A DNA stretch of 64,000 nucleotides from Chara braunii (lineage: Eukaryota; Plantae; Charophyceae), in contig BFEA01000036.1 in assembly GCA_003427395.1 (NCBI GenBank), positions 2,016,031-2,080,030 of the forward strand. The letters run 5' to 3'. Below, in pieces: positions 3,041 through 51,700 of this stretch (its first letter is position 1; every line of letters starts with the position of its first letter). Both the position numbers and the translations under genes were made by a program. The notes beneath the pieces were generated by a model that worked only from the letters and a program-made list of their open reading frames with translations, was not told the origin of the DNA and did not search any database.

Positions 3041-3209
3041 CAGCTCCAGCTTATCCTCAGGGAAACTTCGAAGGCAGGGAAACTTCGAAGGGAACCACCT
3101 ACTAGACGGTTCGATTAGTCTTTCGCCCCTATATATCCCAAGTCCGACAAATGATTTGCACGTCAGTATGGCTGCGAGCCTCGACCAGAGTTTCCTCTGG
3201 CCTCGCCCT
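3041..3209 (-). pseudogene. 26S rRNA: 26S/28S rRNA fragment
   Basis: Antisense of the conserved LSU segment (GGGGCGAAAGACTAATCGAACC...TAGTAG...GTTTCCCT.AGGATA.GCTGGAGC), with a 17-bp internal tandem duplication. Confidence 0.92.
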
Positions 3210-3594
3210 TTATTCCAATTGTTACATCCATCAGGATTTTTTGTTTTTAAAGACCTGAGCTATTTATCAAGAATTACATGTGTGTAGTACTGTGTACCAT
3301 TTAGCCACAGGTGAGGTATACATGTCAGTCAGGCTAAATTAAAAATGCGAGATTGGGAGAGATCTTCACAATCTCCCGGCCTATGAGAGAGAAAGAGGGA
3401 TTCCTTGTCACAATATCCAGGCTTGCAAGAGATTTAACCTCGATTTCCTGGCATACAAGAGGATTATACAAGATTCTCCATCATAACCCCCAGGTGTATG
3501 AATCTGCAAACCACTGGGCTAGGGGGGGAAAAAACACTATGCCAGACTGCATGGGTAGAGTGGCTGCGTCAACAATTTGAAGTACAGTGCAGAT

Positions 3595-7206: not shown

Positions 7207-7966
7207 TTAAAACGACGGCTGGGGTTGGACACAATTGTCCATACCCCCCCTGCCTTCCGCCATCTCCAACCTCGCGCGAGCAACATTCGAACCTGAAGAG
7301 ACACCTTCCAGCCCATCATGCTGCCGATGGTCCATGCCGTCTGCCGCTGAATCAAATCTGTGTGTAAGGCTCCTCCCTCGCACAATACCTTCGTCATCTG
7401 ACTCTCCGCCAATCCTCACCAAAGCCATCGCAACACCTTGTAAACCATTTACTCCGTCGCTTCCTCTCATGCTGTCGCTGTCGACAGACCCTACTCTCAT
7501 CCCAAGTTCTACTTCTGCTCCATTATTATCATCCTTGCGCATGCCTGAATCTCCATACCCCCTGTAGAGACTTCCACTTCCACCCTTGCTGCCAACACCA
7601 CTCGATCGGACACCGTCATCGCTCCCTATTCGTCCATAATTCCCAAGCATCAAAGTTGGGGCCTGACCTAGTGGTGCGCCTTGCACAATCATGGAGCTTC
7701 GACTCCCATTCCCATTCCTGCCGCCGTTGCTTGTGCCATTCATGCAAATAGTCGATATGTCATCACTGCCCCTGCCATTGCCATTACCACCTAAGAGCGA
7801 AGGCCCAACCATGCAGCCCAGGTTGCTCCCACCTCGCAACCCAACTTGAGGTTGTTCATGCGTGTGCTTCCCCTCATACGTGGTGATAACCATACTGGGA
7901 TCTTGTGTCGACCTCTCCACATGCTTCCGCACCGGACAATCTGGCGTTGTGCACTTGTAATAACTC
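7207..7966 (-). CDS. WRKY: Group I WRKY, exon 5 (zinc finger of C-terminal domain, Gly/Ser-rich tail, stop)
   Basis: Acceptor tttcag|[29 protein letters not shown]...[10 protein letters not shown]; TAA at 7207-7209. The five exons sum to 2847 nt, in frame. Confidence 0.95.
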
Positions 7967-8930
7967 CTGAAACAGAGCGCATCGCACACCTCGTGTCAGT
8001 GTGCCGCAGGCTCTGCGAAGAAGCGCAGGCGTCGCTTATATTCTGCTTGCAGACTTCGACAAGCTTCTGCCCAAGGATTCAAAACAACTCCCTCTGAGGG
8101 AAAGAAGCTGAAGCCCCTCTCCCAGTTTCCACTCCGTGCTCTCCCAACGCTAACTATGTGCACTCAACACAACAGCAGGCACCCAGATCGCCCACCATCA
8201 ACCGAATCACCGTTGCAAAGATGCACAAACACAATGCACATATTCCTTCCTGCAAAGCAAAAGCTGCTGCAATAGACTCTTTACGGAACTTAGCACACTT
8301 GGGCAATCATATATACACACCACAAGGATCGTACATTCGACCATGCCATGCGGAGAGACGTGGATCAATGTTTAGGCGATACAGGAGAGGGACACCACAA
8401 TCCTGCATCGGCACTGTACAGCCCATCGTACGAGAAACAGCACTCACACGTTGCGGAAAAAAATAGGGGCGGGGAGGATGGCCTTGCCCTAACAGAAAAA
8501 GCAACAGTTCACTACGAGCCTTTCTCTATCACTGACAGCCACCAGCACTCAAACACACAAACTTCAGGAGGGAAACATAATATCTTGTCAAACAATACTC
8601 GACGCATTTCACGACGAGAGGGGTGAGCATGAAGATCCAGATCTGGAGCAGGGTTTGATGGTCCGAGGTGAACGTCAGACACCCAGGACTCCCGCAGGAA
8701 AACACCTTGTGTAAGCCAAACACCAATCACCAATAATGAGAACCGGTGGGTTGTCATAACTGTGCACACAACTCACAAAGGCATCCAGATACAGATGGAA
8801 ATTCAATAACAATGCACAGCACTCGGTGCCTTTCAACAGTTCACCACATATAATCCTTCACCCACGTGAGTGATCTCACATTTGCTGGGTGTACAGTATC
8901 TACCAGAACATGCACTCATGTACGAACTTC

Positions 8931-14200: not shown

Positions 14201-15356
14201 AGAATGGAATGAATATTGTGAGGACGGGTGGTGCAGAGCACATACAGAGCCAACGATAGCAGATCATTTGAACGATTGCACACACTGGCCTCGCTCTTCC
14301 CTTTGACATTTTTCCATTCACAAACATGAATTCACCACAAGAACACACTTGTGACAGTTACACTACAGCAAAAAGAAAATCATCACACATTCACAGACAT
14401 GACTTCCCTGCTGGAACGCTTCTAGCAGTTGTACTAAACCAAATAGTTAATCATCACACTAGGAGTGTGAAACTCTATTAACAGGAAAAGCACCGGCAGG
14501 CTGCGGCAGCTTATAAAACTATGAAGTGAGCATCCAGCATGTATCTCGTGCAACGCTTCACGAACAGAAGCTGATCAAGGCAAGCCAGCCAGCATCATTC
14601 ACGTAGTTTATGAGCAAAGACAGACTTCACTCACAGGCATGCATTCATAGTACTTCATACTTGAGGAGCAACCAAAACAACAAAAAACAGCTGAAACAAC
14701 TCGCACAGGGACACCATTGCCCCAAACAACATCGAGAACAACACCAGGACATGGATACATATCAATTGTGGAAAGGCCAATCAAATCCCTATGCACTTCA
14801 TGTTCTCGAGTTGCAGAGAACAATCCGAACTTGGCCAATGTTTCTGGATTCACTCCGCCTTAAGGCCTTGCGTGCTATTGTCATTGCCAAAATATTTTCC
14901 GCAGCTGGTTGGTGCGAACAACAAGTAAGGGATATGTTTGGTGTGTATTTTTCCAACCATCCTGATTTACATTGTATATTAACAGATTACGTTTTTTTAA
15001 GGGTCGTCGATAGAGAGGGCAACCGCCTCTGCAGGTTGCGTAAAGAAAAGGCTCACTGCAAAGATCCGAAGGTGATCGGAGAGCAGCCTTCAAGACGCGG
15101 CTTCGGGCACTCGCATCCAGCTCGCCAGAGTCATATTAGAGGTATTCAATATGTTTTAACTTCCTAGTTCTAACCCCCTATGAAGCACAATGCCAACTAA
15201 CGACTAACATCAACAAAAAGAGCAACACCAGAATGAAAAGATTTCGCCAAAAAAAAAAAAAGAAAGCAAGAAGTGGACTTAGCCTCCACATTACTATTTC
15301 GGACAATAATAATTCATTTCAACAGTTTTCAACACAAGAAACTTTGGTAACCTTAC

Positions 15357-15695: not shown

Positions 15696-16318
15696 ATAAA
15701 ACTACGTACAGCAACTCTATTCCAGATTTCATAACACTTTTATACACGATGGGATAAGAAAAAGACACACAAGCAGTTCTTTATAACCAAGTTTGTCAAG
15801 AAAGGGTGCATAGCAGTTGAAGCAATGAGCTGAATATCTTCAGTTCATCACTTCGGAAAAGTTGATAGGAAGGATGAACCAGTGCCTTCAAGAGTTGGCG
15901 CTGCATTTTCATATGCACACAGACCATTACCGCTGAAAATAGATAGAGCACAGAAAACAACCTGATTCATCTACAAGGGCTCTAACCTGCGGCTGTGCGA
16001 CTAAGCGAAAATGAAAAGCAAGCCAACAAGAAAAGCAGAGCCCAATCAACGAGTAAACAGCCAGGCACTGACCCATATCAATGGGCAGGGACACGGTTTA
16101 CTCGACGGTTTTGTGATTTTTAAGGGCCACAGGACTATTTCAAGGCCAATTGTACACGCTCCAAAAACGCCCAGACACAGGCAGAGCATTTCAAGAGAAT
16201 TGCCCCACCAAAGCAGGCGGTTCTGACTCCTTTTAGCCCAAACTTCTGGCGGATCTGCGCTTGATGCCCTAAGCCATACTCTTCAGGAAGGATCCTGGCA
16301 ACAGAGGATAAAACATAC

Positions 16319-17298
16319 CTCTTCTTGCATCCATCTAGATCATCGCCACCCTCAACACCTCGCTTAGCACATGTGGTCATTCCAAGCTCCATCTCAGTGT
16401 CTTCCATATCATCCATGTCAGCACTTGAAAATGAGGACCGTGACAACGAAGAATGCGGGGGACTTGCCGACCCAGAATAGGGGGGATACAAAAGCCGGGC
16501 AGAAGCTTGTCCAGATCGACCTGGACCCCCCCCACCACAGACGGGGGAGGAATTGGCCACTGTTATGGCACTGGACAACCCGTCCTCGCAGTTGGAAGGG
16601 GAGGCGTCACCAGAGGAGTTCAATCTGTCCAGCCGTACGGCACCAACATTCGGCGGTGACTTGGCATCATCATCCAGTGAATGGCGATTGGTATCGTGGA
16701 CACGCGTCCACATATCCTCTCCATCTGATTGCCCTTCACCTTCTATAACTGTGACCTTCCCACCATCTAGATTTAGTTCACGGCCGTCTCCAGAATTCCC
16801 CCATCCCCCATCTCTGTCAGAGCCCACAATAGCCAGTGTGAGATGGGATGACGGCCCTCCAGACGAATTCTTTCCTGAATCCTTTCCCAAGTTGCTGTTC
16901 CTCATCCTTGCAGCAGCTGCATTAGCTGATCGCCGCAACATTGCTGGTTGGGGATGGTTATGGTCATTTTTGTACTCCACTGACAAATCCAGCCCTGAAT
17001 GTGTTCGTTCCACGCGCTTCTTTGCTGAGCAACTGGGGTGCGTGCACTTGTAGTAACTCCTTGGATGATTGCTCCCCTTCACATGCTTCTGTCCATATTT
17101 TCGCCAATTCCAGCAATCAGGAGCGCTTCTTTCTTGAAAACCGCCTGCTGATCGGCCACTTCCTTGAACTGGACGGGCGACAGCTCTCCTTTCCTCCTGT
17201 GCCTCTTGCCGTGCCTGATGCTTCTGTGGCAACTGCTCGTGCGACTGTGTCGCAGTCAAAGCAGGTGTTGTCTCTTGGTGGGGCTGCAGTGAATTTGT
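16319..17298 (-). CDS. WRKY: Group I WRKY, exon 3 (N-terminal WRKY domain)
   Basis: Acceptor cttgcag|ACA. Encodes [26 protein letters not shown]...HNH (C2H2 finger). Donor AG|GTATGT, phase 2. Confidence 0.93.
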
Positions 17299-18064
17299 CT
17301 GCAAGAGGACAAGACCGATACCCCAGCCATGGAGCTCAATGTCAGGGACTGCCGCGATTCCCTCCACAAATGAAAACAAACACGCTAACAAAATGAATCA
17401 CAAGCAGCATGTCGTTACCCCAGGTGCTTTCCAAATAGCTGCGAACAACAGCAAGGAAATAGTTCCACTTTCCAGAGAGAAAGTCCTATATCATCTCCAA
17501 TAGTGTCATCTTGTCCTAGATCCCTAAACTTCGGTTCCGCTAAAGGACATACAACTTCCTAACGTTCCTTTAGCAGAATATCCGACAATACAACCAATTA
17601 CTTTTTTCTCCCTTTTTTACATAAACTTTGGTAAGACAATCTTTTGTCCCTGCAATACATTTATTTGCTGCCAGAGGTTCGGAGCTTCTGAAAAAACAGG
17701 CAAACTTGCAGAGCCACCCACTTCTTTGCCATCAGGTTTATGCCAGTCCTGAACTCCAATGCCGTATCAATTTCATTCTCATATCCGAATGCCTACCGTC
17801 ACATCCATATTCCAACGCCACTGTTATCCACAGCATACCAACCACATGGAAAGACATCAGCAATTCCCTCAAATATCCCAACAACAACCCCAAGCCTCAT
17901 CCCATCCCTCCTCCCATGCATCCATCTCTTGATCACCCACCAGTGACAGCATACCAACCACCCACAAAGACTTATGATGGAAGTCCCTTCGATCACCCAA
18001 AACACAACCCCAACTCGCATCCCATCACTCCTCTCATCTCTCCATCTGCCCAAAACATGACAGC

Positions 18065-26047: not shown

Positions 26048-26232
26048 GAATTCGCTCCCTGATTCCATCATCAGAGCGTTCGGCCTCTGATTCCATTCCC
26101 TGATTCCATCAGAGAATTCGGTCGCTGATTCCATCATAGAAATCGCTCCCTGATTCCATCAGAGAATTCCCTCGCTGATTCCATCAGAGAATTCGCTCTC
26201 TGATTCCATCAGAGAATTGGCTCCCTGATTCC
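26048..26232. repeat. ~25-bp minisatellite (GAGAATTCGCTCCCTGATTCCATCA)n, ~8 units
   Basis: Repeated ctgattccatca core. Confidence 0.9.
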
Positions 26233-27009
26233 GTTCATCAACAGTTACCCGACTGTCCCATTCAGCCACGTGGATGCTGGGGGGTGGAGTTCACTTCTTA
26301 AGACCAGGATGGAGTGAAATAGAGGTGAACGACGGGGATGGACCAAAGAAAAAAGCATAAACTTTTTTTTTTTTTTAAATCACAGTCCACAATCCTAATT
26401 CTTTCAGTGCATGACACAGGTCGCTGAGTGTATTTCTTTGTCGTTCCGCCCAAGGCCGATATATGAATCCATTGCACAATTCAAGGCATACTCACGCCAG
26501 CACTTTCGTAAAATGTATCTGCCTGAAATTGCGGCCATAAGTGGGGATGTATCTGACTGCAATCGCGTCCCGAACTCAGTCCAAATACTACGAGTACTAG
26601 TGAAAGTCTGCCGTCCGCAATTGCAGCGTCGGCCTGAGGCCGGCAACATAGGAAGCACCAATAGCGACACAAAAGTCCCTCCTTTTTTAGCGGCTCTCAG
26701 CCTGGTTTTCTTCTCCTCTTCTCCCATTCAAAGCTCCTTTCCTTCTCCCAATCAAAGCTCCTTACCATGCAGCTGCCCTACTCCCTCTAGATGTGTGGTC
26801 ATGGCAAGATGATGAGGGCAACCTTCAACTCCAAGATCAAAGAGATCCGCCCCGTCCTTTCCATGTCCTCTCAAATCTAATCACCGTACAAACAGCGCTG
26901 TGAACTGCTGCTTCGTGACCGTCTGGTATCTCCGTGCAATTTCTCACCGACCCACTCATTCATGCTCTCCCTCCCTCACACCCTTGTAAGCATTCCGACC
27001 TTCCCCCCC

Positions 27010-29080: not shown

Positions 29081-29144
29081 CCTCTCGCGAGTCCCTGCGA
29101 CAGGACAGAGCCACTATACACATCTAGATGTGTATAAGAGACAG
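29081..29144. other. Assembly artefact: Nextera mate-pair junction adapter with a chimeric 34-bp tag
   Basis: TATACACATCT-AGATGTGTATAAGAGACAG (29115-29144) is the Tn5 mosaic-end junction. 29081-29114 is identical to 44271-44304 and lies at a gap edge. Confidence 0.97.
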
Positions 29145-37239: not shown

Positions 37240-38659
37240 NNNNNNNNNNNNNNNNNNNNNNNNNNNNNNNNNNNNNNNNNNNNNNNNNNNNNNNNNNNNN
37301 NNNNNNNNNNNNNNNNNNNNNNNNNNNNNNNNNNNNNNNNNNNNNNNNNNNNNNNNNNNNNNNNNNNNNNNNNNNNNNNNNNNNNNNNNNNNNNNNNNNN
37401 NNNNNNNNNNNNNNNNNNNNNNNNNNNNNNNNNNNNNNNNNNNNNNNNNNNNNNNNNNNNNNNNNNNNNNNNNNNNNNNNNNNNNNNNNNNNNNNNNNNN
37501 NNNNNNNNNNNNNNNNNNNNNNNNNNNNNNNNNNNNNNNNNNNNNNNNNNNNNNNNNNNNNNNNNNNNNNNNNNNNNNNNNNNNNNNNNNNNNNNNNNNN
37601 NNNNNNNNNNNNNNNNNNNNNNNNNNNNNNNNNNNNNNNNNNNNNNNNNNNNNNNNNNNNNNNNNNNNNNNNNNNNNNNNNNNNNNNNNNNNNNNNNNNN
37701 NNNNNNNNNNNNNNNNNNNNNNNNNNNNNNNNNNNNNNNNNNNNNNNNNNNNNNNNNNNNNNNNNNNNNNNNNNNNNNNNNNNNNNNNNNNNNNNNNNNN
37801 NNNNNNNNNNNNNNNNNNNNNNNNNNNNNNNNNNNNNNNNNNNNNNNNNNNNNNNNNNNNNNNNNNNNNNNNNNNNNNNNNNNNNNNNNNNNNNNNNNNN
37901 NNNNNNNNNNNNNNNNNNNNNNNNNNNNNNNNNNNNNNNNNNNNNNNNNNNNNNNNNNNNNNNNNNNNNNNNNAACTGTTTTTTTTAACCAATGGATTTG
38001 AACCCGATACTTCTATTTTAGGACTCATAGTATATTTGGATTTGGGGGGGGGCTTTGGTTTCGAACCCGGTACTTCTTAGACTTAATTCCCCCAATACCA
38101 CTTTTTCACGCCTGGATTTCGCACACACGAATTTGCAGATGTTTTCAACTGTATATTGGACCAATTCGAAAATTACGGATGTTTTTATAATAGAGGTGGA
38201 TTAAGAGTTTGATACCAAGGTCAGTCTACAAACGACAATATAGGGTATTGGCGTCGAGACGTCATGTGTCAATAGTGACGCTGTATCCCGGGTTGCATTC
38301 ATAGACTCAAATAAAAAAAAACGTACAAGGACAACGATAATGTAACTTTGTCTCAATCACTATAGCTTATAGTTGGCTCGAGATCGTTTTTTTACAAAAG
38401 ACATTGTGGCATGTCGTCTTCCTCAACGAGAGATTTGTCGGACACCTACGACGATCACTTTCTACTTCTTACTTTTTTATTGTCACCATCGTTGTCGTTC
38501 GAAATGGCGCCTTCCCTCAATACATTTCGCTTGTTGGGCAACCCCCCTCTACTACTTACTATTTCATCATGTCGCTTGTTCCTTCGCAGTTGTCAACCCT
38601 TCGCTGCCCCTCCTCACTTCCTCTTTCACGAACCCTTCCTCCACCACTACATTTTTTTC

Positions 38660-41600
38660 CCCTCATTCTCTCGTTGTCGAGCGCACGATCCCCTCATTAG
38701 GGGACCTTCCCGTTCACGTCACGTAGGGTTCGGCACGTCGCATACCAATAAGGAGCGTCGCCACTCTGGTCGAGTGCGCTAGCTATACCTCTCATGGGTT
38801 CTTACGATAGGATAGGGTCCCGCGAGGTACAACTTACCTTCACTCACGGGAGTTGTCACCATCCCTTGGGTGGGTGTATCCCCGTCGAGCTACCAACCCA
38901 CAGTACGAAAGTTTTTACATGCAATCGCAGAGGTGGACCAATCGATGATGTTTTCTCACAAGTTGTAGCAAAGGGGGTACACGTGGTGCCTCATCGAACC
39001 CGCACACGAGCCGACGCTTGGGGCACTGATCTCCCACTGGCAACCGCGACCCGTCGGTCGTCTAGGACATCACAACTACCACACATTTCACTCTTACAAA
39101 TATAATCTTTAAACATGATTTCTCTATGCCTAGTCCGCTTGCAAATATTAAAACTCATAACTTATATTTCACGCGAATAGACTGAGGCTCGCATGAAAAT
39201 GTACAAAAATAATCGGCATCATAAGCGAAATCATCATAACACTCAGTCATACGAAATCACATTATCAGTCGTCATGGCGACCCATTATGGGAAACCTATA
39301 AATGTGCGACCCTTTACGGAAATCGGGGTTGTGCATGACGGTTAAGTGTCGAACACAAAGTGTCGTGAAGGACATCTCTTTCACGATATTGAACGGCGGG
39401 AGGATAAGTCGTTCAACCCTCGTAGTGTCTCTGGTCTTGAGGCAATGCGCAATGCGTTAGTGTCCATCATATAATGAGAACCCTTATGTGTTGGACAAAA
39501 TCTGGAATGTCCTGGACAAGGACCTCAAATTTAAGTTTCAGGACCAACGTTCATCTAGACAAACAAACAAACAAGATCCTTACAACAAGATAGTTATAGA
39601 CGAAAGGGGGTGTAGAAAGATAGAGGATAAATCAGGTTAGGATTGTGCGGCATCATGTTGCCTTTCTCACAGTCACCATGCGGTGCTCGTCCATTGCCCT
39701 CGACAAGCATCCAACCACAACATCCCAGAAATCGTATCAAACTCTTAACAACTGACTTGCATAAAACATATACACATGCAGACGAAACTACATCGTAATA
39801 CACTGAACGGGATCAACCTTGTATCTCATGTCCCCTTAACTCACACCGGAAACCCAATCATTATCCGACTCCAAAATGATAGTCAACCCCTTTGAATGAA
39901 CCTTTTGATAGAAATGGGGTAAAATCCTAAGGACACCCGCAAACCCACAGGGCTAAGTTTTTAGGTTTGAGATACAAAAGTAGTTAGAAGCCAAGTCACA
40001 AACCTAATTGCTATCAATCAATAGCAGAAGTTTATGAAGTCCAAAATGTATGAAAGTACTTGCAGGTAGTGGTGACTTGTGTCACAAACCGAAGCAGGCG
40101 GCACCTGTCGAGTTCAAGTTAACGGAGATCGACTTTGTATCATACTCTCAATTATCTAACAGAGCGTCCTATAACGATATGAAAATAACATTTTTTTTTT
40201 TTTTAATACTTCCTCTACGGAAGTGTGCTCGCATAATATTTACTAAACGGAAGGAAACTCCCATAATTTCTACTAACTCAAAACCTCACCAAAATCTGAC
40301 AAAAGTAAGCACATACGAAGAAGACAACGTGGTAACAAAAATCGACGACTATATGACTATTGTTCAAGCACAAGACGAACACTAATAAACTAAGTTATCA
40401 GACTGAAATGACAAACATGTGAACAAAAAAACAGAATACACGAACATAATTCAAATCAATTGCTCAAAGCAAGGGTTCCTTGATTAAAATTCATCTTTAC
40501 ATTAATATGTGCAGACTCTTAAAAAAAACAATATCCTGTATCTAAATTAATAAGTTTTAAATTATTCAAGTTATTCTCATCCAAAAACATGCAAATAATC
40601 GAAGCATCCATTTAGATTGTCTCACAAAAAGACAAGTCTGGACTTTTTAACAAGTACACGATTGGACTATGATAGCAAAACGTCCGGATCAGTCGATACA
40701 ACATCTTGTCCAGGTTCATTCAACCTCTCAAACAAATGTTAACAAAGTGTCTGGATCATTCGATATGACATCACACCTAAACTCATTTCAAACTCTCAGG
40801 CAAACGTCAACAAAGTGTTCAAAGTGTCTTGATCAGACAATACGACATCATATCTAAACTCATTTCAAACTTTCAGGCAAACAAGAGCAAAGCGTCCGGA
40901 TCAATCGATGCGACATCACATCCAAACCCATTCAAACCATTCTCATAAACTAGTGCAAAACATCTGGATCAATCGATGCAACATCATATCTAGACTCATT
41001 CAAGATCCTCACAAGCAAGCAATAGCAAAGCACCTCGATCAATAGATATGACATCATGTCCATACCCATTCAGATCATCACATGCAGACATCAAGGAGTC
41101 CAATTCAAGCAAAATGAAATTAAAGAAGCATAGTAAAATTCTCTTTGATTTAGTTGAACTCCTAAGTTAAAGTCAAGGAAATAGACAAAAAGTCAAAGCT
41201 CAGTAAAATTGAATAAATGGTAGTATAGATAGGGATATACGGGATCCTAAGAGAAATCACGCTGGCCTACCTTACAGTTCGCTGCCTCCAGGATTCCGCC
41301 TGAACCCTCGCAGAGCTCCCGCAATCAGTGGGTCAACCCCGACAAGCCTTGACGTGATCTTGTGGGTTGTAATCCCACTTGCTGCCTTCCTCTCTTGAAC
41401 AACAGATTAGGCTTAAATTAAGAGGGAAAGAAAGAGTAATCTCATTCTCTCAAGATACGAGAAAGAGTCACTTAGACTCGCATGCAGAGGACCTTGTTGC
41501 CTTTGGATCCTAAGGGTCCCGCGATGTTGGCCAATCACTGAACTTGGAGTCTTAGGTCGTGGATGTTGCAACGAAACTATTACTGCAATAAGTACAATCT

Positions 41601-41760
41601 TCAACCCTTCTGTTGCAGTCCAACCTCTGACAAAAGACCCGGTAGCACTAACATCAATCAGTAGTAGCAGTGCTCTAATGCATAGCAAGGACCGCTGTCA
41701 AATGCACAACCGCGAGGTGAGTCAGCACGACTTGGAAAATTGATGAGTACGACGTAGCAA
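38660..41760 (-). mobile_element. Repeat element A (possibly LTR-retroelement-derived, non-coding); right boundary uncertain
   Basis: 38660-39075 is homologous to 44145-44545 and 41270-41540 is homologous to 48250-48510, in the same order and orientation. Confidence 0.6.
40670..41075 (-). repeat. Array of six ~67-bp units, each folding as a two-tier stem-loop
   Basis: Consensus AGCAAAGY-GTCYGGAT-CAATC-GATR-YRA-CATC-AY-ATCYARAC-YCATTCAA. Confidence 0.85.
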
Positions 41761-41778
41761 TGATGAAAGCAATTGCAT

Positions 41779-42010
41779 TGTGATGACGGGGAGAGTGGCG
41801 ATCACCACACGATCTCGCTACGCAAGAAATTCCCCCTCTCTCTCTCATCATCTACTTACCTCTGCCCGACGTACCTAGCCAAGGTACCAGAAAAATTCAC
41901 TACTTTCTCCTTCTTTGCACTTAGCAAATGTTACTCCCACAAGACGCACTATATTCTCCTCTTCAATGCACCTTACCAACACTCCTAGTGGGGATCACGT
42001 TCTTATCACA
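41779..42010. mobile_element. Possible short solo-LTR-like insertion
   Basis: Termini TGTGATGA...TTATCACA (TG..CA, near-inverted). No clear TSD. Confidence 0.3.
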
Positions 42011-42833
42011 GCGCATCGACGACTTCGAACTGACAAGCAAAACCACAAACTCGGACCACAATAGTACAAGAGCGACCACAAAGCTTACTTATGGTCACCG
42101 CATGCACAAGGAGAGCAACCACATCCATGATAAAGGTGAATACAAACACTATTACAGACCACGTTCCACTGCTTACACATCTTCGGCATGAGAATGAATC
42201 GCCCGCCAGAACACGGAAAGATGCACCGCTATTTGTCGTTATTTTATTTTTTTTTACCTTTATTTTGTCACTATTATCTCATCTATGCTTGTGGTCGGCC
42301 TTTAAACCTTGATTCGGTCAACTTTCCCTTGTCCTTCGTCTTCGTTGTCTCTCCACTCCCTCCTCCCATTTTCCTTCACCCCATTCGTTCCGCTCTTCTT
42401 CCCGTCGAAACTTACTAACCTCGCACGAACCCTCCGTTCCTCATACCGACCAAACATTACTCGAATCAAAATTCTGGAGCGAACATCTAATTCGACAAGC
42501 GTCAAAACCCCTACTTAGCATTTTACTTGCCAAAAATAGTCAAGAATTGGCCGAGAGGCATTACTTCCAATTCTCCTTTTCTTTCATTTTCGTCTTCTCC
42601 GCGCATGCCCTTTTCTCTTCTAACTTCCTCTCTGCTACTCTAACACTAACACTAACACCACCACCGAACTCGTCCAACCTAAGAACCCTTGTTTCACACT
42701 TTCTCTCGCTCGATCTCATAAAAAAAACGAACGAGGTAGTTGTTTTTCACCTTTGCCACATTCACCATCTCCTTCATCGTCGTCCTCGTCTTCTTCGTCT
42801 TCGATCCGACAACGCTCAGCCTGGTTTGCTCCA

Positions 42834-43509
42834 CAACTCCAACTATTGCGAGGGAAACTTCCAAGAGAACCATCCACTAACCGGTTTGATTAGCCTTTTG
42901 CCCTTATACCCGAGTCCGACGAACCATTTACACGTCAGTATTGTTGTGAGCCGCTGCCAGAGTTCCTACCGGCCTTGCCCTGCTTAGGCATAGTAGTTCA
43001 CCATATTTCGGGTCTCAACTGGCTTGCTCACACTCACCTCTTACAACAAATCATTGTTGGCGGACGACACACCCGCAAGGGGGATTCCGCCACCTAGGTT
43101 TCTTCCGCCTCGTGGGCTAAGCACCCACCGACTCACATGCACATTTGAACCCCTCGGTCCATGTATCAAGACGGGCACGATAAAGGAATCTCGCCAGCAT
43201 CTCGAATATGCAAGAACCCGAACGGGTCCGCCAAAACATGCGCGTGCTGAAGGTCCTCGACTGCCATGACGACCACCCGTGGGGATTTCAATTGCTCCCC
43301 ACTTCAATGCCGCCCACAACAACCCATGTCGTCAGGTAACCCAGATCCTAACAAGGGGGTGACAATCCGGTAACCGTCCCCCATTGCTCTACGCTCGACA
43401 AATTCGAGCACTCTTCAATTCTCTTTTCAAAGTTCTTTTTTTCATATTTCTCTCGTGGTACTTCTTCACTACCAGTCTGTCGCACGTATTTAGCCTTGAA
43501 TATGTTTAC
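42834..43509 (-). pseudogene. 26S rRNA: Heavily diverged 26S/28S rRNA 5'-region fragment (~675 bp)
   Basis: Antisense LSU landmarks in the expected order: gagggaaacttc, gattagccttttgcccttataccc, ggcatagt..ttcaccat.tttcgggtc, gt.tcaagacggg, cttttcaaagttctttt, gtatttagccttg. Confidence 0.9.
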
Positions 43510-43639
43510 TTTAGCTTCACTTGGTTCGAACTCACATCCGTAATTCAACAGTTCATGGACGTACCAACTGGGGTATGTCAGTCGGTTCCACAATCGGTCC
43601 CTGAGCCGTTAAAAAAACAGGACCTTATTAATACGGTAA

Positions 43640-43900
43640 AATAAAGATAAATATAAAAATAAAAATGGGGAGGGGATGACGAGGAGGAAAAACGGGAACC
43701 CGATGGCAGCCTCTTGGTCCCGCTAGTCGGATCCGTACTCGGGACCCCTTGACCCCTCAGCCTCCTCCAATAACGCTCCTTCCCTCAAGTGTTGCTTTCT
43801 GGCCTCGATCCCTGAACGTGTCTGGTAAAAGTCAAATGTCGTACCCACTAATGTCAAACCCAAATCTGGATTTGGCCCGTGCAAACTTCCTGATTAACGG
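43640..43900. repeat. Dispersed repeat related to 53400-53720
   Basis: A-rich tract, then gggg-gagg, then acccctcag.ct.ct...aacgctcct.c...tgttg..t.ctggcct.gatccc...ctggt..aagt..aatg.cgta.c...cccaa.tctgg in both copies. Confidence 0.6.
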
Positions 43901-44139
43901 TATCCACATATTGGTCGTATCGAGGTTTACCAACGAAACCAACACCTACAAGCCATCGACCCTATATCGAAATCGCGACGCACAGTCAAAGCGGCGCCGA
44001 CTTGTGTTTTAACATACTGTGGGCCCTGCAAACCGGCCCGACCGTACAAAAAACAAACTAAGAATAAAAACCAGGATCAAAATAATAAACGACATAAAAT
44101 AATAATAAAAACTATAACTTATCCGTTGTGGCCTCGCTA

Positions 44140-47100
44140 GCCCAGACATTTATCGCGTTGTCGAGCGCATCGGTCCCGCTAGGGGACCCTCCCGGCCGCG
44201 TCACGCAGGATTTGGCAGGACTTCCGTCGCGGAGAGTGAAGTGCCGCTCCGGCCGAGTGCGCCAGCCGTACCTCTCGCGAGTCCCTGCGACAGGACAGAG
44301 CCACGCGAGGCACCGCTTTACCTCCACCTGCGGGAGCTGTCACCATCCCTTAGGTGGGCGTATCCCCGCCGAGCTACTGAACCACATGCAAAAACTTTTC
44401 GTATGCAATTGTAGAGGTGGCCCAGCCGAGGGCGTTTCTCGTTCGCTGTAGCATAGGGGGAAATCGAACCCGCACGCGAATCGACGTTTTGGGGGGCTGA
44501 GGTCCCAAACGCGACTCGGCGCTGGTCGACTAGGACGCATCACGCACACTACGCGTACACCACAACACTCACATCTACCCACACATAACACATGGAAAAA
44601 CAAAAAACAAAACACAACATCACAACACTCCTAGTCCCTTCAGTATCTGACCCATAACTTCATGGTGTGGAAATCGGTAAGTGTCGCGCGCGCGGGTTAA
44701 CATAAGGCCGCGCGACCACATGACTTACGCATATCGACCAACAATGCGGGTTTTGCGTAAGCAATCGTGATGTCGGCGCACCATGTAGTGCCCATACCCG
44801 AGTGACCTCGTTTAAGCCATGGGGTCGCTTTCGATGCTCAGGCGTCGGCTGAAGCGCACACTAAAGGGGGTAAACCTTTAGCGAGCGCAAAAACCGGCCT
44901 GAGGGCCTTACCGTCTTCAGCACCTTGAGGTGTCCTAAAGGGTGCGTGGTAAGATGGTCCCTAGGACAGAAAGGGATTCGGAGCGGTGGTGAGTTGTCTG
45001 GCGCATCACCAGCGACACGCTAATCCTTCCGCCCGGAACTTTATCGTTCCACCAAAGCAAATTAAACAAGGAAAGAGAAAAGAGGCGCTTGACGCTAGCA
45101 GAAGAAGACATGAATGCGAGTTGCTGTGGGTCAGTCCCTCCTCCTTGCGGCTCTTCAATTTCCCTAGGGCAGTAAGTAGGTCAGAGTTGTGCGAAGGGTA
45201 ATCCCTTCAGCCCCGAACCTAGGACCTGGGACTAATGTTTGACCATATAAAATCAAAAAGTAGAAGAGAGTCGTAAGCGTGCGGTCGCATATCTTTGTGA
45301 GGGTTATCCGAGCGTACGCCTACTTTGACCATTAAAANNNNNNNNNNNNNNNNNNNNNNNNNNNNNNNNNNNNNNNNNNNNNNNNNNNNNNNNNNNNNNN
45401 NNNNNNNNNNNNNNNNNNNNNNNNNNNNNNNNNNNNNNNNNNNNNNNNNNNNNNNNNNNNNNNNNNNNNNNNNNNNNNNNNNNNNNNNNNNNNNNNNNNN
45501 NNNNNNNNNNNNNNNNNNNNNNNNNNNNNNNNNNNNNNNNNNNNNNNNNNNNNNNNNNNNNNNNNNNNNNNNNNNNNNNNNNNNNNNNNNNNNNNNNNNN
45601 NNNNNNNNNNNNNNNNNNNNNNNNNNNNNNNNNNNNNNNNNNNNNNNNNNNNNNNNNNNNNNNNNNNNNNNNNNNNNNNNNNNNNNNNNNNNNNNNNNNN
45701 NNNNNNNNNNNNNNNNNNNNNNNNNNNNNNNNNNNNNNNNNNNNNNNNNNNNNNNNNNNNNNNNNNNNNNNNCAACTCACACCCTGCCTTACGCACACAA
45801 GCCCAACCTTTTCCCCACCTTTCCATAACAAAGATACTCAGTCTTTAAAGAAATGACCATTTATAAAGAATCTAGGTGAAAATCCAAGAAAACAATAAAC
45901 CAGCAAGGGCCAAGGCCTTAGGTTGAGAAGCAGAAGTAGTAGGAAAGTTGAGTCGTAAACCGACGAATCAGCAACCGACCTGTTATCAATGATAACAGAA
46001 GAATAATCCTTAACAGGATTATGCTGGCCAGATCAATCCTTCAACCGAGTTACAAAGACCTGCATCACAGTACAGGCCAAAGAAAACCACTACTACGTTT
46101 ACCTCACATGGAGAATACTTTATAGCTCGTATCCTAGCTCCTCTACTAGTCTCAAACTCAGCTCCTCTTTTCTAATATGGGTCTTGAGAAATTTGGCAGC
46201 ATCTCCCCTATTCAGGGTGGACTTGCAAGTTTCTCCTAGCATAAATTATTCTAACTCCTCGATTTCTACGAAATTTCGGCAGCGCTTCCCGTAGGAAAAG
46301 TGCCTTTTCAGAATTTCCGAAAGCCCAAAAATGACTAACTCTTTCAGATTTGTAGAAATTTCGGCAGCGCTTCCCGTAGGAAAAGGAGGCTGCCAAGATT
46401 TATACAAAGCTAAAAATANNAAGACAAAGCAANACTATACTTGGGACTAACTTCTGACGCTTACTTTGGAAGGTNGAATCAGTGATAGTCTGNNCGACCT
46501 CTAGATGAGAGCGTGAGCTANCACTGATCCTAACTCCTAGCAGAGNCAAGTCCTATCTTATCCCAAGTTTTTNTCCCATCATCCATCTTATCTGCCTATG
46601 GCTCCAGCACTCAGCGAGCATCTAAAGCAACTAATCCTATCAGAAGATGTCCCAGAGTGAGAGCCCGCAAACACACACAAACAATCACAACGAACATCTC
46701 TCACCAACCCTCAGGTTTCTTTCAACCTCATAGTTCGTTCAAAAAACCTCGTTATTCACTTTTACATCCCCCTTTCCTATGGCATACGGTGAGACAAAGC
46801 CCTAACTCTATGGTATGCCTGACCTGCCTAGGTACACGAGTAAGGCACACACATTTGGACTGCCCTAACCCTAGGGTGTGCCCAACATGACAGGAACTAT
46901 ACACATAAGGCATATGCCTAACTAACAACAAGCGCATAGGACTGGGCTGTCCTAACCCTAGGGTATGCCCAGTCTGCTTTAAACAAAGTTACATACGACA
47001 TCATTCTAGACCATCCCTACCCAGGGGTAGGTCTAGCTTGCCTGAACATAAGTACAAACGACAAAAAGTTGAACCGCCCTAACCCTAGGGTACGTCCAAC

Positions 47101-48740
47101 CCACAGCACATCAACGACAAAGGCATGTTACTAGGCCGCCCTAACCCTAGGGTACGCCTAGTTAGCCATACAATTTAAGTTACATAAGGCAATATGATCA
47201 GGCTGCCCTAGCCCTAGGGTGTGCCTGATCTACCTGAACAGTTATAAACACCAAAACGCTGGACCGCCCTAACCCTAGGGTACGTCCAACTTACATTAAA
47301 CGACAAAGGCTTATCACTAGGCCGCCCTAACCCTAGGGTACGCCTAGTTAGCCATACAACAGAAAATAGGGTACAAATACTTCCACAGACTTTATGTTTT
47401 TCCTCCTCTTGTTAGGCAGTCAATCGGACCTTTCCAACTTGTGGAACTTCCGATTCAGCCTCATGTCTAGAAGGGGAAATAAAATCAGATTTATACTAAC
47501 TCTCTGCTCCTTAGTGTTATCATGAGCATATAACTGAACCGCCCTAACCCTAGGGTACGTTCTGTCTGCCCAGTTACCTTCGTTTTACTCTTCATCTCTT
47601 TCCCTTTTTTTTAGTTCTACCTGACTCACTGACTGGCTTTCCCCACCCGGGGCGCCCAGTCTGTCAGATGTATAAGTTCAAATTGTATATATATCAAGTT
47701 TTATACTCTGGTTGACCATTTAGTTCATGGCTCATGGCTAAGCCGCCCTAACCCTAGGGTACGCTTAGTCTTATGCCGTTACTCCCTCAAAAGAAAACAC
47801 GCACCACAACTCATTAAAATAAACACCAGGATTTTGAGCCTTCCCCACCCGGGGTGCCCGTCCTCCTGTTCAGAAACCCTCAAATAAAACAGCGACTGAT
47901 CCTATCCCACCCGGGTGGACCAGCCATAAAAGTCATTCATTCAATACAACAAACCTCAACAAAACATAGCACTGAGCCCACATCCACCCGGAGGGACTCA
48001 ACCTGGGTTTGACCCGGTCAGACGCATGCAAAAACTCCTTCATCCGACCTTCCCCCAATTCCTTTGTCTGAATTCTCTCAAAAGTTATTTGAATTCTCAT
48101 ATATACTTGTTTATTAAACCTTTGCATCGCATGTCCTGACAAACATAGCAAACCAGAAAAAAGTAATAACCTTTCGTAATTATATTTAGATACCCAAAGG
48201 AATAATAGTAGTTAGGGAAAAGTATCACACGCGTCAGGCGAAAGTTATACCTGAGTGTTCCCTGCCTCCAGAACCCTGCCTGGGCTTCGGCAGAGCTCCC
48301 GCAATCGGTGAGGCAACCTCCCATAGAGGCCTTGGCGCGGACCTATGGGTTGCAATCCCGCCTGCCGCTTCCCTCTCGGCACCAAAAGACTAGACTGAGA
48401 CTTAGAAAGGCAGAAAGAGAAATAAGTCAGACTCTCAGATGGGTGCTCTCAGACTCGCGTGAGAGGGCCTTGAAGCCTTGACTCGCCTGAGGGCCCCGCA
48501 ATTGTGCCCAAGGGAATGTAATAGAGAGGAACAAATCATAGTCTGGATGTCGAACAACAGCTTCCAACAGCCTTCCGTGCTGCAGCAGTAACCCCTCTTC
48601 TGTCGTATCTGATCACATTCTAAGCTACCCCGCCTCAACACGTGGAAAGGGCCGCGTTCGAATAAAGCACACCCCTGTGCCCTATTCAGATTCAGGCCAT
48701 AGCAGCCTAGTGCAGCGGCGATGTACAATAGCAACGCGCA
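44140..48740 (-). mobile_element. Repeat element B, same family as element A (contains an N gap; boundaries uncertain)
   Basis: Two homology blocks shared with element A; no intact ORF. A donor-like CAG|GTATAA at ~48250 lies 5' (minus strand) of the hairpin array. Confidence 0.6.
46791..48000 (-). repeat. Array of ~15 covarying stem-loops with a conserved ACCC (minus strand GGGU) loop
   Basis: Core CGCCCTA-ACCC-TAGGGTAC flanked by unit-specific complementary 6-8-bp arms, mostly ~60-66-nt spacing in the main block 46855-47348. Confidence 0.92.
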
Positions 48741-51700
48741 TCAATAGTATGAAACATGGTAAGATCAAAATGTAACAGTGGCCAAGTACTCAGCCTCAGC
48801 GTCCAACTTCCAATTACCGCGACCACTCACTATCCCCTCAACTTAGTAACCAACCAACCGTTAGCAAGGTGTTCAAGGCCAGCAACCCACAGGCTCACAA
48901 CAACAGACCAGACCACTAGCAGCCCACTGGTGCAGAAACCCGCAACAGCCGCCTCCTGATTGCCCAACAGTCATAGTCCGCCGTTGTTGGGGCTACAACG
49001 CCTTCGCCTGAGTGCACAGTATCAACACCGTTTGCCCCAAGCATAGTATGCATGGTAATCGAACACAGCAGTCAATAAAAAGCAGAGTCCCAGATAACAC
49101 GGACTGGCCTTGCACCAAATACACAGGCAGGATCTGTCTGTTCATGGGTACAATCAGGAATACACAGTCGCTGCCCCTCACCGACACGTTGGCTCACGCC
49201 CGGTCCTTCTGCAGCTAGCCGGGGCAGATTTTGAAATCCTCAGACCACAAAGGCAACAACAAATAAGAGAATCTGTCAGCAGCAACTTACGTAAGACCCA
49301 GCCGTGGCAGCTCATGGACATTAGGTAGGGGTGGCAATCCAATTATCAAGAAGAGTAGCTCTAAGGACAGTCAACAATCTTGAAATTGAGCAAAACAGCA
49401 ATAGCTCCTCCTGCGGTGCTATAGCAACGATAGCTCCCAGACTATAGTAGTGGCAACCCGCCGCAGTTGCCTTGCTGTCATAGCGACACCTTACTGTGTA
49501 ATCACGAGGAGTTGAAGTCAATCAGTTTAGATGCTACTACTGGATGTCAACNGTNCGTATGTTGCAGCTCAAGAATTTCGCTGCCTTGACTGCCGCCTGA
49601 AAACAAAGCACAGAGGCCAACAACAACTTGTAGGCAGACCTCAACAGCGGCCNCAACGCCAACTTGCGTTGAGGTGCAGCGGTAGTCAAGGCTTAGCGGG
49701 TAGCAGCACTTCAAAGTCAGAACTAGTAGCATCAACTTGAAGCAATGAATTCACTCTTCCAACTGCATGTCGACCCCCCCCCCTTCAGTCTTACCTCCAT
49801 CTTGACTTCTTTCTCCCTTATGGGCCTCCCTCTTTAGGGACTCTTCTCCCTTATAATGAACCCAGCCTTACTGTTGTCCTGGTGCACATGAACTAATAAC
49901 AAGAGCGTGCACTCGCCCCTCATTCCATCAGGTGAGTGCCTTTGCTCCCCACACCCTCATTTTCGCCCTGTTGATATCAATGCGCCTGTGCACGTTAATA
50001 CTGCTATATAGGTAAGCTTCTCCCTTTTCCTCTTTTACTGCGTTTACTCACCCTGCCGATACCGTACTTTCCCTCTCTCCATACTCCCACAGATTCTCTC
50101 TCGTTGCTCTGCTTGCCGCCTTCGTAGCATTGCCGTTCTTCCTCGCCCTCGAGCACTTCACCTAGTCCCTAATGAACCCAGCTGAGCCACTGGCCAGATG
50201 CATTCCTTTTTTTTTCTTTTTTCTTTTTAATAGCAGCCAGAGAGTCGAGTAGCCTGGGGAGAGTGTCGTAGCCGATGCAAACTCGGAGGCGGGCGATAAT
50301 GAGCCAACCACAACGGTGAGCACCTCGATCCCGATTACGACAACGAGGACCATGATCCCGATGCTCGAAAAAAATCACGACGATGAGCTGGAACGCGTGA
50401 CCAAGTGCCACGCTCCACTACTCATATGTGCAATATTAGAATGAGTCTGTTGCTAGAACGTGGAGAGGTATGATGCCTTCCAGTCGTACGTGCAAATGAA
50501 TGAGTCTCCCGCAAGATCTTAAGAAGATACATTCAGATGATGGACGAAATCACCAGCAACAGGTAAGTCTCCAACCCGACGGTGAAGAGCGCCACCGGAT
50601 CACGAGCGCTGACACGAACAGCAGATGATTACCTTCGAATCTGTCGCTGAGCTGGCCACCATGAGCACCACACTTCACACCCCTCCTGCTCTCTAGTGCC
50701 TCATGTGCCCTCCTTCTCTTTCGCTTCCCAATCTCCTCCTTACTACTACACCGCCTTCAAGTCTCATGCGCAGAGCGATAGAGAGTGGCTACTTCCCTGG
50801 GCCGGACGAGAGAAGTCGAGTGAATCTCCTGCCTGATCGTGGGAAGATGCACCCGCCATCCTCACACGCGCAGCCTTTACCGTTGATACTGACCAGACCG
50901 TCGCTCAATTGGGAATTCTAACATGACCATCTGTTCCGGAACATGTAAAAACCCCAATTTCGAGTCTTACCTCGCTTGATTCTGTTGAGAATCGGGCGAG
51001 ATATGCTCGTTTCTCTTCTCGTCTTTCGCCCGTCCGCCATCTCTCGCGCACGTATTTTTCTTCTAACCTCCCTTCCTGCACAACTAGCACCAAAAACTAA
51101 CACTACTACTGCGCTCGCCCTGTCCCAGAACCCCGCCTACCACTTTCCCCCACTTGGTTTCGTTAAGAAACGAGCATGGTATAGCAGTTTATTCCCGCCA
51201 TAGCCTTTCGTCTGGTTGCTTTCTCCTTCCTTACCTGCAGATGTATCTAGCGCGAGATCGCGCCCAGATGCATCTGCCTTTATACCAGCCTGTTGAACTA
51301 AGCACGGGTTGCACACTGCTGTCCCTGCGTGCTTCCACCAGCGCCACCTGCTTTGGCCCATCACTCTACTTCGGGCAGTGGCCCATCACCCCTCTAATCC
51401 CATTGGCATGCTCACACTCAATCCTCTCACACTTAGATGGGCCACAGATACCCTAGCCGTGCCCCTCTTTTCCTTGATGCGAGCGCAGTGCCTAGTGGCA
51501 GCTAATCCGATAGCAGCCCAACTGAGAAGTGAAGCTTCATAAGGCTTTGCTGTCGGACCGGGTAGTCTTTAATACTCATCCTACTCGAGCTGTGACCGCT
51601 GGCCACGGCAGCGAACACACCAACCTTCTGCTGGCCAGGATCAAAAGCTGCACACAACCACCCTTGCCTACGGGTCATTCTAATACTCCTTGTACCAAGG

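Follow-up and report, generated by a model that had tools for sequence, protein, structure and literature searches.

Results

A hairpin array in which structure and loop are kept

We analyzed a 64,000-nt window of the Chara braunii genome (assembly GCA_003427395.1, contig BFEA01000036.1, forward-strand positions 2,016,031 to 2,080,030; coordinates below are those of the window) and found that a non-coding, multi-copy repeat, referred to here as element B, carries on its minus strand an array of 15 hairpins in which the structure and the loop, but not the stem sequence, are kept. The strongest fact beyond the original prediction, which had been made for this array from the DNA letters, is that an orthologous array in a relative of element B has a different fixed loop. 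The host element is probably a non-autonomous long terminal repeat (LTR) retroelement, and the array may act as a docking signal for a protein on the minus-strand RNA.

The original prediction described about 15 two-tier hairpins with a near-invariant GGGU loop, and both features were borne out. Eleven units belonged to type I (loops beginning, as the first plus-strand base, at 46805, 46868, 46955, 47019, 47082, 47144, 47211, 47272, 47330, 47547 and 47751) and four to type II (47645, 47847, 47909 and 47986). On the minus strand, the type I unit is composed of a 7-bp outer stem, a 3x2 internal loop, a 5-bp inner stem and a 4-nt loop; the 3x2 internal loop was kept in all ten regular units, and the eleventh, at 46805, was a decayed form with reversed internal-loop asymmetry. 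The type II units, which lie close to the RNA start, have an inner stem of 3-4 bp and mostly a 1x3 loop. The terminal loop was ACCC on the plus strand in 13 of the 15 units, with exceptions at 46807 and 47211. Within the 1,250-nt array, 13 GGGT loops closed by at least three Watson-Crick (WC) pairs were present on the minus strand, compared with two on the minus and two on the plus strand over the other 59,129 nt. The possibility that the loop word saturates the whole of element B was rejected, as GGGT occurred 16 times in the array and 25 times in the other 4,746 nt. The inner stem was CCCTA/TAGGG in eight of the ten regular type I units; the inner-stem covariation that had been predicted is mainly between types I and II and hardly present within type I. 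Similarly, the linkers, described as U-rich, were enriched only mildly (253 U in 720 nt).

As evident from permutation of the arms, the outer stems change in sequence and remain complementary. In the ten regular units, 63 of the 70 outer-stem pairs were WC, whereas arm-swap permutation gave a mean of 43.1 and none of 50,000 permutations reached 63. Part of the array is a duplicated pair of units (Table 1), a caveat that had accompanied the prediction; when this pair was dropped, the test was still strong, with 50 of 56 pairs being WC against a permutation mean of 33.4, and 2 of 40,320 permutations reaching the observed value. Additionally, 8 of 12 pairs in an 11-unit alignment showed two-sided changes, which none of 500 shuffles matched in a control that ignores relatedness. 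These results support the view, already put forward in the prediction, that structure and not stem sequence is kept in array B. The strand signal from this copy was weak. The outer mismatches had been described as mostly A-C on the plus strand, corresponding to G-U on the minus strand; we counted seven non-WC outer cells, of which only three were G-U on the minus strand, one was A-C and three were other combinations. The array matched no Rfam family at the gathering score, the best E value being 0.21 in a focused search.

To place the array in the genome, contigs of run X1 were aligned to element B at 85%, with summed depth serving as an inexact proxy for copy number. The mean summed depth was 6,586 over the array and 66,401 over the conserved block 1 of the element, while that of single-copy DNA was 5-14 and that of a direct repeat to the right of sister element A was about 180,000. 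This suggests that the array is present in hundreds of genomic copies, although cross-mapping between units inflates the depth figure, and it supports the view that the array sits in a multi-copy repeat of the mobile type. Differences between B and the majority of copies were classified at 24 positions over 46758-48089 (23 of 24 rows from 46791 on, together with 48089), among 40 of 350 rows. Seven fell in type I units: two restored the loop, four restored a WC pair and one lay in an internal loop. At 46807 and 47211, most genomic copies had the ACCC base. The two loop exceptions and the four broken pairs are therefore decay of the B copy, because most copies have the regular base.

Relatives carrying other arrays

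A scan of a metagenome with a 21-nt motif of block 1 gave two loci, L001 and L002, whereas scans of viral contigs and genome contigs gave none. Only L001 spans the array; L002 ends before it. L001 contained nine hairpins behind block 1, with the loop UAAGUU in eight and UAAGAU in one. Two-sided changes were found in 12 of its 15 pairs (27 cells, compared with 11.8 in shuffled alignments; 0 of 500 shuffles), and for each of the nine units the minus strand gave the better fold (28 G-U and 6 A-C cells). Positions 781-1198 of L001 aligned with 47951-48349 of B (E 1.5e-20), most of the score coming from block 1. The first hairpins of B and L001 were alike in their flanks but different in the loop. 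A covariance model of type I recovered its 11 training units; the window, L001 and L002 yielded no other match with E < 0.1.

The arrays began at similar distances from a donor-like site at the end of block 1: 261 nt in B, 268 nt in L001 and about 220 nt in A. Three unit types thus occupy a homologous place in B, L001 and A, so that the family-specific repeats lie at a fixed non-coding position, and three full arrays were seen, two of them covarying. The original prediction drew an analogy with G-rich retroviral tetraloops. This analogy is weakened by the hexaloop UAAGUU in the orthologous array of L001, since what is conserved across the family is then not a G-rich tetraloop.

Transcription of the family

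The strand of the RNA runs X9, X10 and X11 was calibrated with a large-subunit (LSU) rRNA fragment, for which a first mate on the plus strand denoted minus-strand RNA; the fragment had depths of 111 (minus-strand RNA) and 0.3 (plus) in X9, and 431 and 0.3 in X11. In the sampled reads (6% of X9 and 13% of X11), the array had minus and plus depths of 0.61 and 0.06 in X9 and 0.75 and 0.03 in X11, and block 1 had 33 and 0.8 in X9 and 61 and 0.5 in X11. The predicted minus-strand transcript was therefore seen as a bias in X9 and X11, but X10 was unbiased. Reads less than 95% alike to B made up 97 of 101 in X9 and 174 of 179 in X11; since these are nearly all the reads, they show transcription of the family but not of the B copy as such. 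No holder listed for the array stretch was recorded as RNA, a result that speaks neither for nor against transcription.

Block 1 terminates in a donor-like GT in B, A and L001, and the loose ends of further copies show the same. In B, the GT lies at 48250-48249, with an acceptor-like AG at about 48373-48376. No spliced joint was found over 46580-49545 in any of the three RNA runs, and the loose ends at the donor were read unspliced. Loose ends in the RNA runs also resembled block 1 of L001. Separately, we observed minus-strand RNA over 39240-39474 in the left direct repeat (9.5 in X9 and 18.6 in X11) with several fixed differences, which may come from another transcript.

The host element and its class

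Element B extends over about 45781-53723, across one assembly gap, and is colinear with element A; their blocks are 62-74% identical (Table 1). No Pfam match with E < 0.014 was found in 94 frames of A and B, comprising 93 of the 101 frames of at least 58 aa and one trimmed frame (eight frames with ambiguous bases, N, were excluded, and stretches of 860 and 435 N were unread). No gag-pol coding was recognized in either element in these frames or in homologue searches. Block 1 was rejected as a coding exon, as one searched frame had no homologue (longer proteins only were searched), and it is not claimed as a structured RNA, since 6 of 61 predicted pairs showed two-sided change in four sequences.

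Within the window, LSU rRNA pieces alone reached the Rfam gathering score, and weaker matches were treated as chance. Degenerate LSU pieces lie on the minus strand at 42870-43552 and 3099-3232, and by eye, both end near the same rRNA position. LSU remnants of B, including a weaker one at 51272-51430 (E 0.05), sit at the same relative place as the LSU segment of A, and this segment seems to be an integral component of the element family.

Table 1. Features of elements A and B in the window.
Feature	Position	Strand	Remarks
Fifteen two-tier hairpins in an array (GGGU loop; type I, 11 units; type II, 4 units)	46790..48010	-	Element B
Duplicated unit pair inside array B, loops 47082/47144 and 47272/47330	47066..47350	-	
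First hairpin on the RNA	47955..48010	-	Flanks align with first hairpin of L001 (785-840); loop different
Array A, homologous in place to array B; six units of 67-77 nt with a different sequence	40640..41080	-	
Sister element A, colinear with B	39834..43895	-	Carries LSU rRNA-derived segment 42870-43552
Block 0, common to A (39834-40004)	45787..45961	-	Minus-strand purine tract 45807-45824, putatively polypurine tract-like
Block 1, where conservation within the family is highest	48248..48511	-	69% to A, 81% to L001, 76% to L002; transcribed on minus
Variable non-coding stretch, low copy	48560..50870	-	Summed depth 87-233 over 48560-49545
Block 2, common to A (42428-42747) and L002 (1454-1579)	50871..51192	-	Donor-like GT 50970-50969
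Remnant like the LSU rRNA-derived part of A	52790..52851	-	Beyond 860-N gap; E 8e-5; Rfam no call
Block 3, common to A (43638-43895)	53426..53723	-	E 1e-16; link to array crosses assembly gap
Very high-copy direct repeat (LTR-like), ends in CA on minus	44159..44847	-	Translation matches Chara braunii gene model
Second, diverged direct-repeat copy	38675..39351	-	About 70% over best 420 nt; same terminus

Element A is flanked by the two direct repeats of about 700 nt (E 2.6e-54, only about 70% alike). Both end at the same 7-mer, at which P0121 diverges; a TG start was not located. The translation of the right repeat matched one Chara braunii gene model without domains (E 4e-15), and the minus frame had no homologue, so the repeat was rejected as coding. 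The match by itself would make Chara or a near relative the likely host. The purine tract of B had no counterpart in A by the same scan, no tRNA genes were called, and the element ends lie in gaps or are diverged. Taken together, the direct repeats with a CA end around A, the high depth and the lack of a recognizable coding frame point to a non-autonomous LTR retroelement. We infer this class, because a primer-binding site (PBS), a target-site duplication and a matching 5' repeat of B were not found.

Two other classes were considered and rejected. A PAT/Ngaro tyrosine-recombinase element would have split direct repeats, but 38000-38670 had no match in 39350-56000, and Pfam revealed no frames for reverse transcriptase (RT)/RNase H or recombinase in A and B; this applies to the autonomous form and not to derivatives. 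With features taken from PMC8557442 as the test, a Penelope-like element (Chlamys and others) was likewise rejected, as neither a frame with RT and GIY-YIG (Pfam) nor the hammerhead of some subclades (Rfam) was found.

Other features of the window

An exact 31-nt direct repeat (46270-46300 and 46355-46385) was observed downstream of the array, a 15-nt part of which resembles block 1. Three strong donor-like motifs, seen by eye on the plus strand at about 49930, 50007 and 50563, lie antisense to the variable region of B and may stem from a decayed antisense gene. At about 29109-29144, a junction to what we take to be a sequencing-library adapter directly follows a 34-nt exact copy of the high-copy repeat and is an assembly artefact.

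A WRKY gene of the two-domain, group I type has its exons, separated by very long introns, at 7210-34042 on the minus strand (Pfam WRKY at 16138-17397 and 7210-7995); searches revealed only generic land-plant matches with identity up to 66%. A Complex1_30kDa match on the plus strand (14607-15164, E 8e-10) probably marks organelle DNA inserted into an intron of this gene. Visual inspection placed a 5' fragment of 18S rRNA at 1020-2510, interrupted by an insertion of 1.3 kb whose head (about 1125-1200) resembles a tRNA and whose tail is rich in A; 2379-2498 holds a duplication of 60 nt, and neither Rfam nor ARAGORN called the 18S fragment region. Simple repeats comprised a 5-nt-based satellite (62300-64000), a triplicated 200-nt repeat with GA tracts (58700-59750) and a 25-nt minisatellite (26050-26260).

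Discussion

A proposed subfamily-specific docking signal

Fixed loops repeated on exchangeable stems, on the transcribed strand of an element that encodes no protein, would have the look of a multivalent docking site. We tentatively propose, at somewhat short of an even chance, that the array serves as a repeated docking site for a protein on the minus-strand RNA, with the Gag/nucleocapsid (NC) of a helper element as the probable reader, for packaging and copying. Each unit would fold into a stem that presents the fixed loop; the stem letters would drift in matched pairs, while the loop and the internal-loop geometry would stay fixed within a subfamily. Subfamilies would keep the array 220-270 nt behind block 1 but with different loops, and these would match each parasite element to its own helper, whose Gag/NC would select array RNA for packaging and copying. 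The donor-like sites just upstream would place the array in an intron and so tag only unspliced RNA. A ligand that co-evolves with the element fits, because the loop differs between subfamilies while the position is kept. The parts of this explanation that we infer are in vivo folding, the LTR class, that the ligand is a protein, that this protein is Gag and that packaging is the step it serves. Its more specific form, an interchangeable RNA barcode at a fixed site, with the loop retyped across all units as GGGU or UAAGUU and read by the Gag of the matching helper, is possible but doubtful.

Several results weigh against the proposed docking signal. Homologue and contig searches turned up neither a partner protein nor an autonomous element. 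On the side of the element class, no LTR-like repeat was found 5' of B, no PBS or target-site duplication was recognized (nor, by eye, a TGG-type PBS after 44159), and the reading of 44159-45781 as a complete 3' LTR of B, with 38675-39833 as its counterpart, was rejected because the outer parts did not align (z 0.4). On the side of the structure, folding energy preferred the minus strand in 8 of the 15 units of array B and the plus strand in 7, and a type II pair would become weaker with the majority base at 47658 if the opposite base of the pair did not differ too. The array of A was 88% pairable but showed no two-sided change and folded no better than shuffles (z 0.57). The G-U excess in L001 was not significant against arm composition (p 0.33), and L001 was not shown to belong to the same genome as B. 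Array reads numbered only about 10 each in X9 and X11 and came from other copies. X10, which was stranded for rRNA, was unbiased over the array (7.1 and 6.1) and block 1 (100 and 96), and both strands were equal broadly over the direct repeat too; this signal looks like DNA background but still counts against a clean strand result.

Alternative explanations

The hairpins might instead be read by a host protein that governs intron retention or the nuclear export or stability of the full-length RNA, in the manner of retroviral export elements. All of the structural evidence fits this explanation equally, as does the donor-like GT at the end of block 1, and per DNA depth in X9, block 1 gave about 5x more RNA than the array (33.2/66,401 and 0.61/6,586). 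We nevertheless regard it as unlikely: the three RNA runs showed no spliced joint over 46580-49545 and the loose ends at the donor were unspliced, and the full loop change between subfamilies would better suit a protein of the element that co-evolves with it.

That the array is a by-product, in which a small inverted repeat was duplicated in tandem during replication and its arms were re-matched by template switching with no selection on RNA, appears improbable. A recent duplication is visible in array B, and most of its pairs are WC and hence strand-neutral. However, template switching yields WC pairs and would erase the internal loop, which all the regular units have kept. The 28 G-U cells of L001 pair on one strand only, the position is held across three array types, and loops were kept better than flanks (identity 0.83 and 0.34-0.40, in an alignment with one mis-registered row).

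We see little likelihood that the units act at the DNA level, either as duplex sites for proteins such as Mybs of the telomere-repeat type or by extruding cruciforms. The motif YTAGGGTTR, which we take to be the TRF-type binding consensus, occurs on the minus strand in eight type I units, and these are the only eight sites in the window. The motif is absent from the type II units and the rest of the window, including array A, and by inspection from the L001 units, and such sites would leave the matched outer arms and the one-strand G-U pairs unexplained. There is similarly a slim chance that the array drives RNA dimerization through the 10-nt palindrome ACCCUAGGGU, present in eight units, or through G-quadruplexes between the two G-tracts of each unit: a homodimer of one unit was predicted at -39.8 kcal/mol against 2 x -16.9 kcal/mol for two monomers, a figure without a control in a prediction where any hairpin may form a duplex, and the L001 and A units by inspection lack the palindrome and the paired G-tracts.

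Comparison with known systems

Large retrotransposon derivatives (LARDs) are non-autonomous LTR retrotransposons. The present elements share with them a length of several kb, the absence of a coding frame, a dispersed high copy number (as judged by summed depth), conserved non-coding blocks and direct repeats around A. They differ in the presence of an LSU rRNA-derived segment, and the search for a PBS, a target-site duplication and matched LTRs around B found none. Sequence derived from rRNA is found inside mobile elements such as Cassandra and SINE28 (PMC10946416). Cassandra, however, has 5S rRNA in its LTR and SINE28 is a mammalian short interspersed element, whereas here the 5' part of LSU rRNA (model positions 24-954) lies in the body, clear in A and weak in B.

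In human immunodeficiency virus 1 (HIV-1), the SL3 GGAG tetraloop binds the zinc fingers of NC (PMC8952333), and the units of array B likewise consist of a short stem that presents a G-rich tetraloop. In contrast, the hairpins of the HIV-1 packaging signal psi differ from one another and lie in a single compact 5' region, while the present arrays have 9-15 like hairpins near what would be the 3' end, and L001 has UAAGUU.

Another close parallel is with Tat-lineage Ty3/gypsy elements (Ogre and Retand), which carry family-specific short tandem repeats in the 3' non-coding region; their function is given as unknown (PMC11963269, PMC7004042), and PMC11963269 describes the origin of such arrays as unknown as well. 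Like those, the array here consists of family-specific short repeats between the body and the 3' end. The units here are hairpins with compensating stems and a fixed loop, not homogenized repeats, and the main texts of the two papers use neither "hairpin" nor "secondary structure". The present element also has no gag-pol by which it could be placed in a lineage, and reports of Retand are confined to flowering plants. Family-specific tandem arrays are known in plant LTR elements, but no description of a covarying-hairpin form was found in the literature searched, which lacked most subscription journals.

The recognition of non-autonomous plant retroelements by their helpers and the role of family-specific arrays are described as open in PMC11963269. 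If the RNA barcode suggested above is real, the long-unexplained family-specific tandem repeats of plant LTR elements would at least in part be multivalent codes for packaging or recognition. Orthologous arrays that differ only in the loop allow a direct loop-swap test of specificity, and, should the docking reading hold, such arrays with their readers would provide new orthogonal pairs of RNA tag and protein of the MS2 kind.

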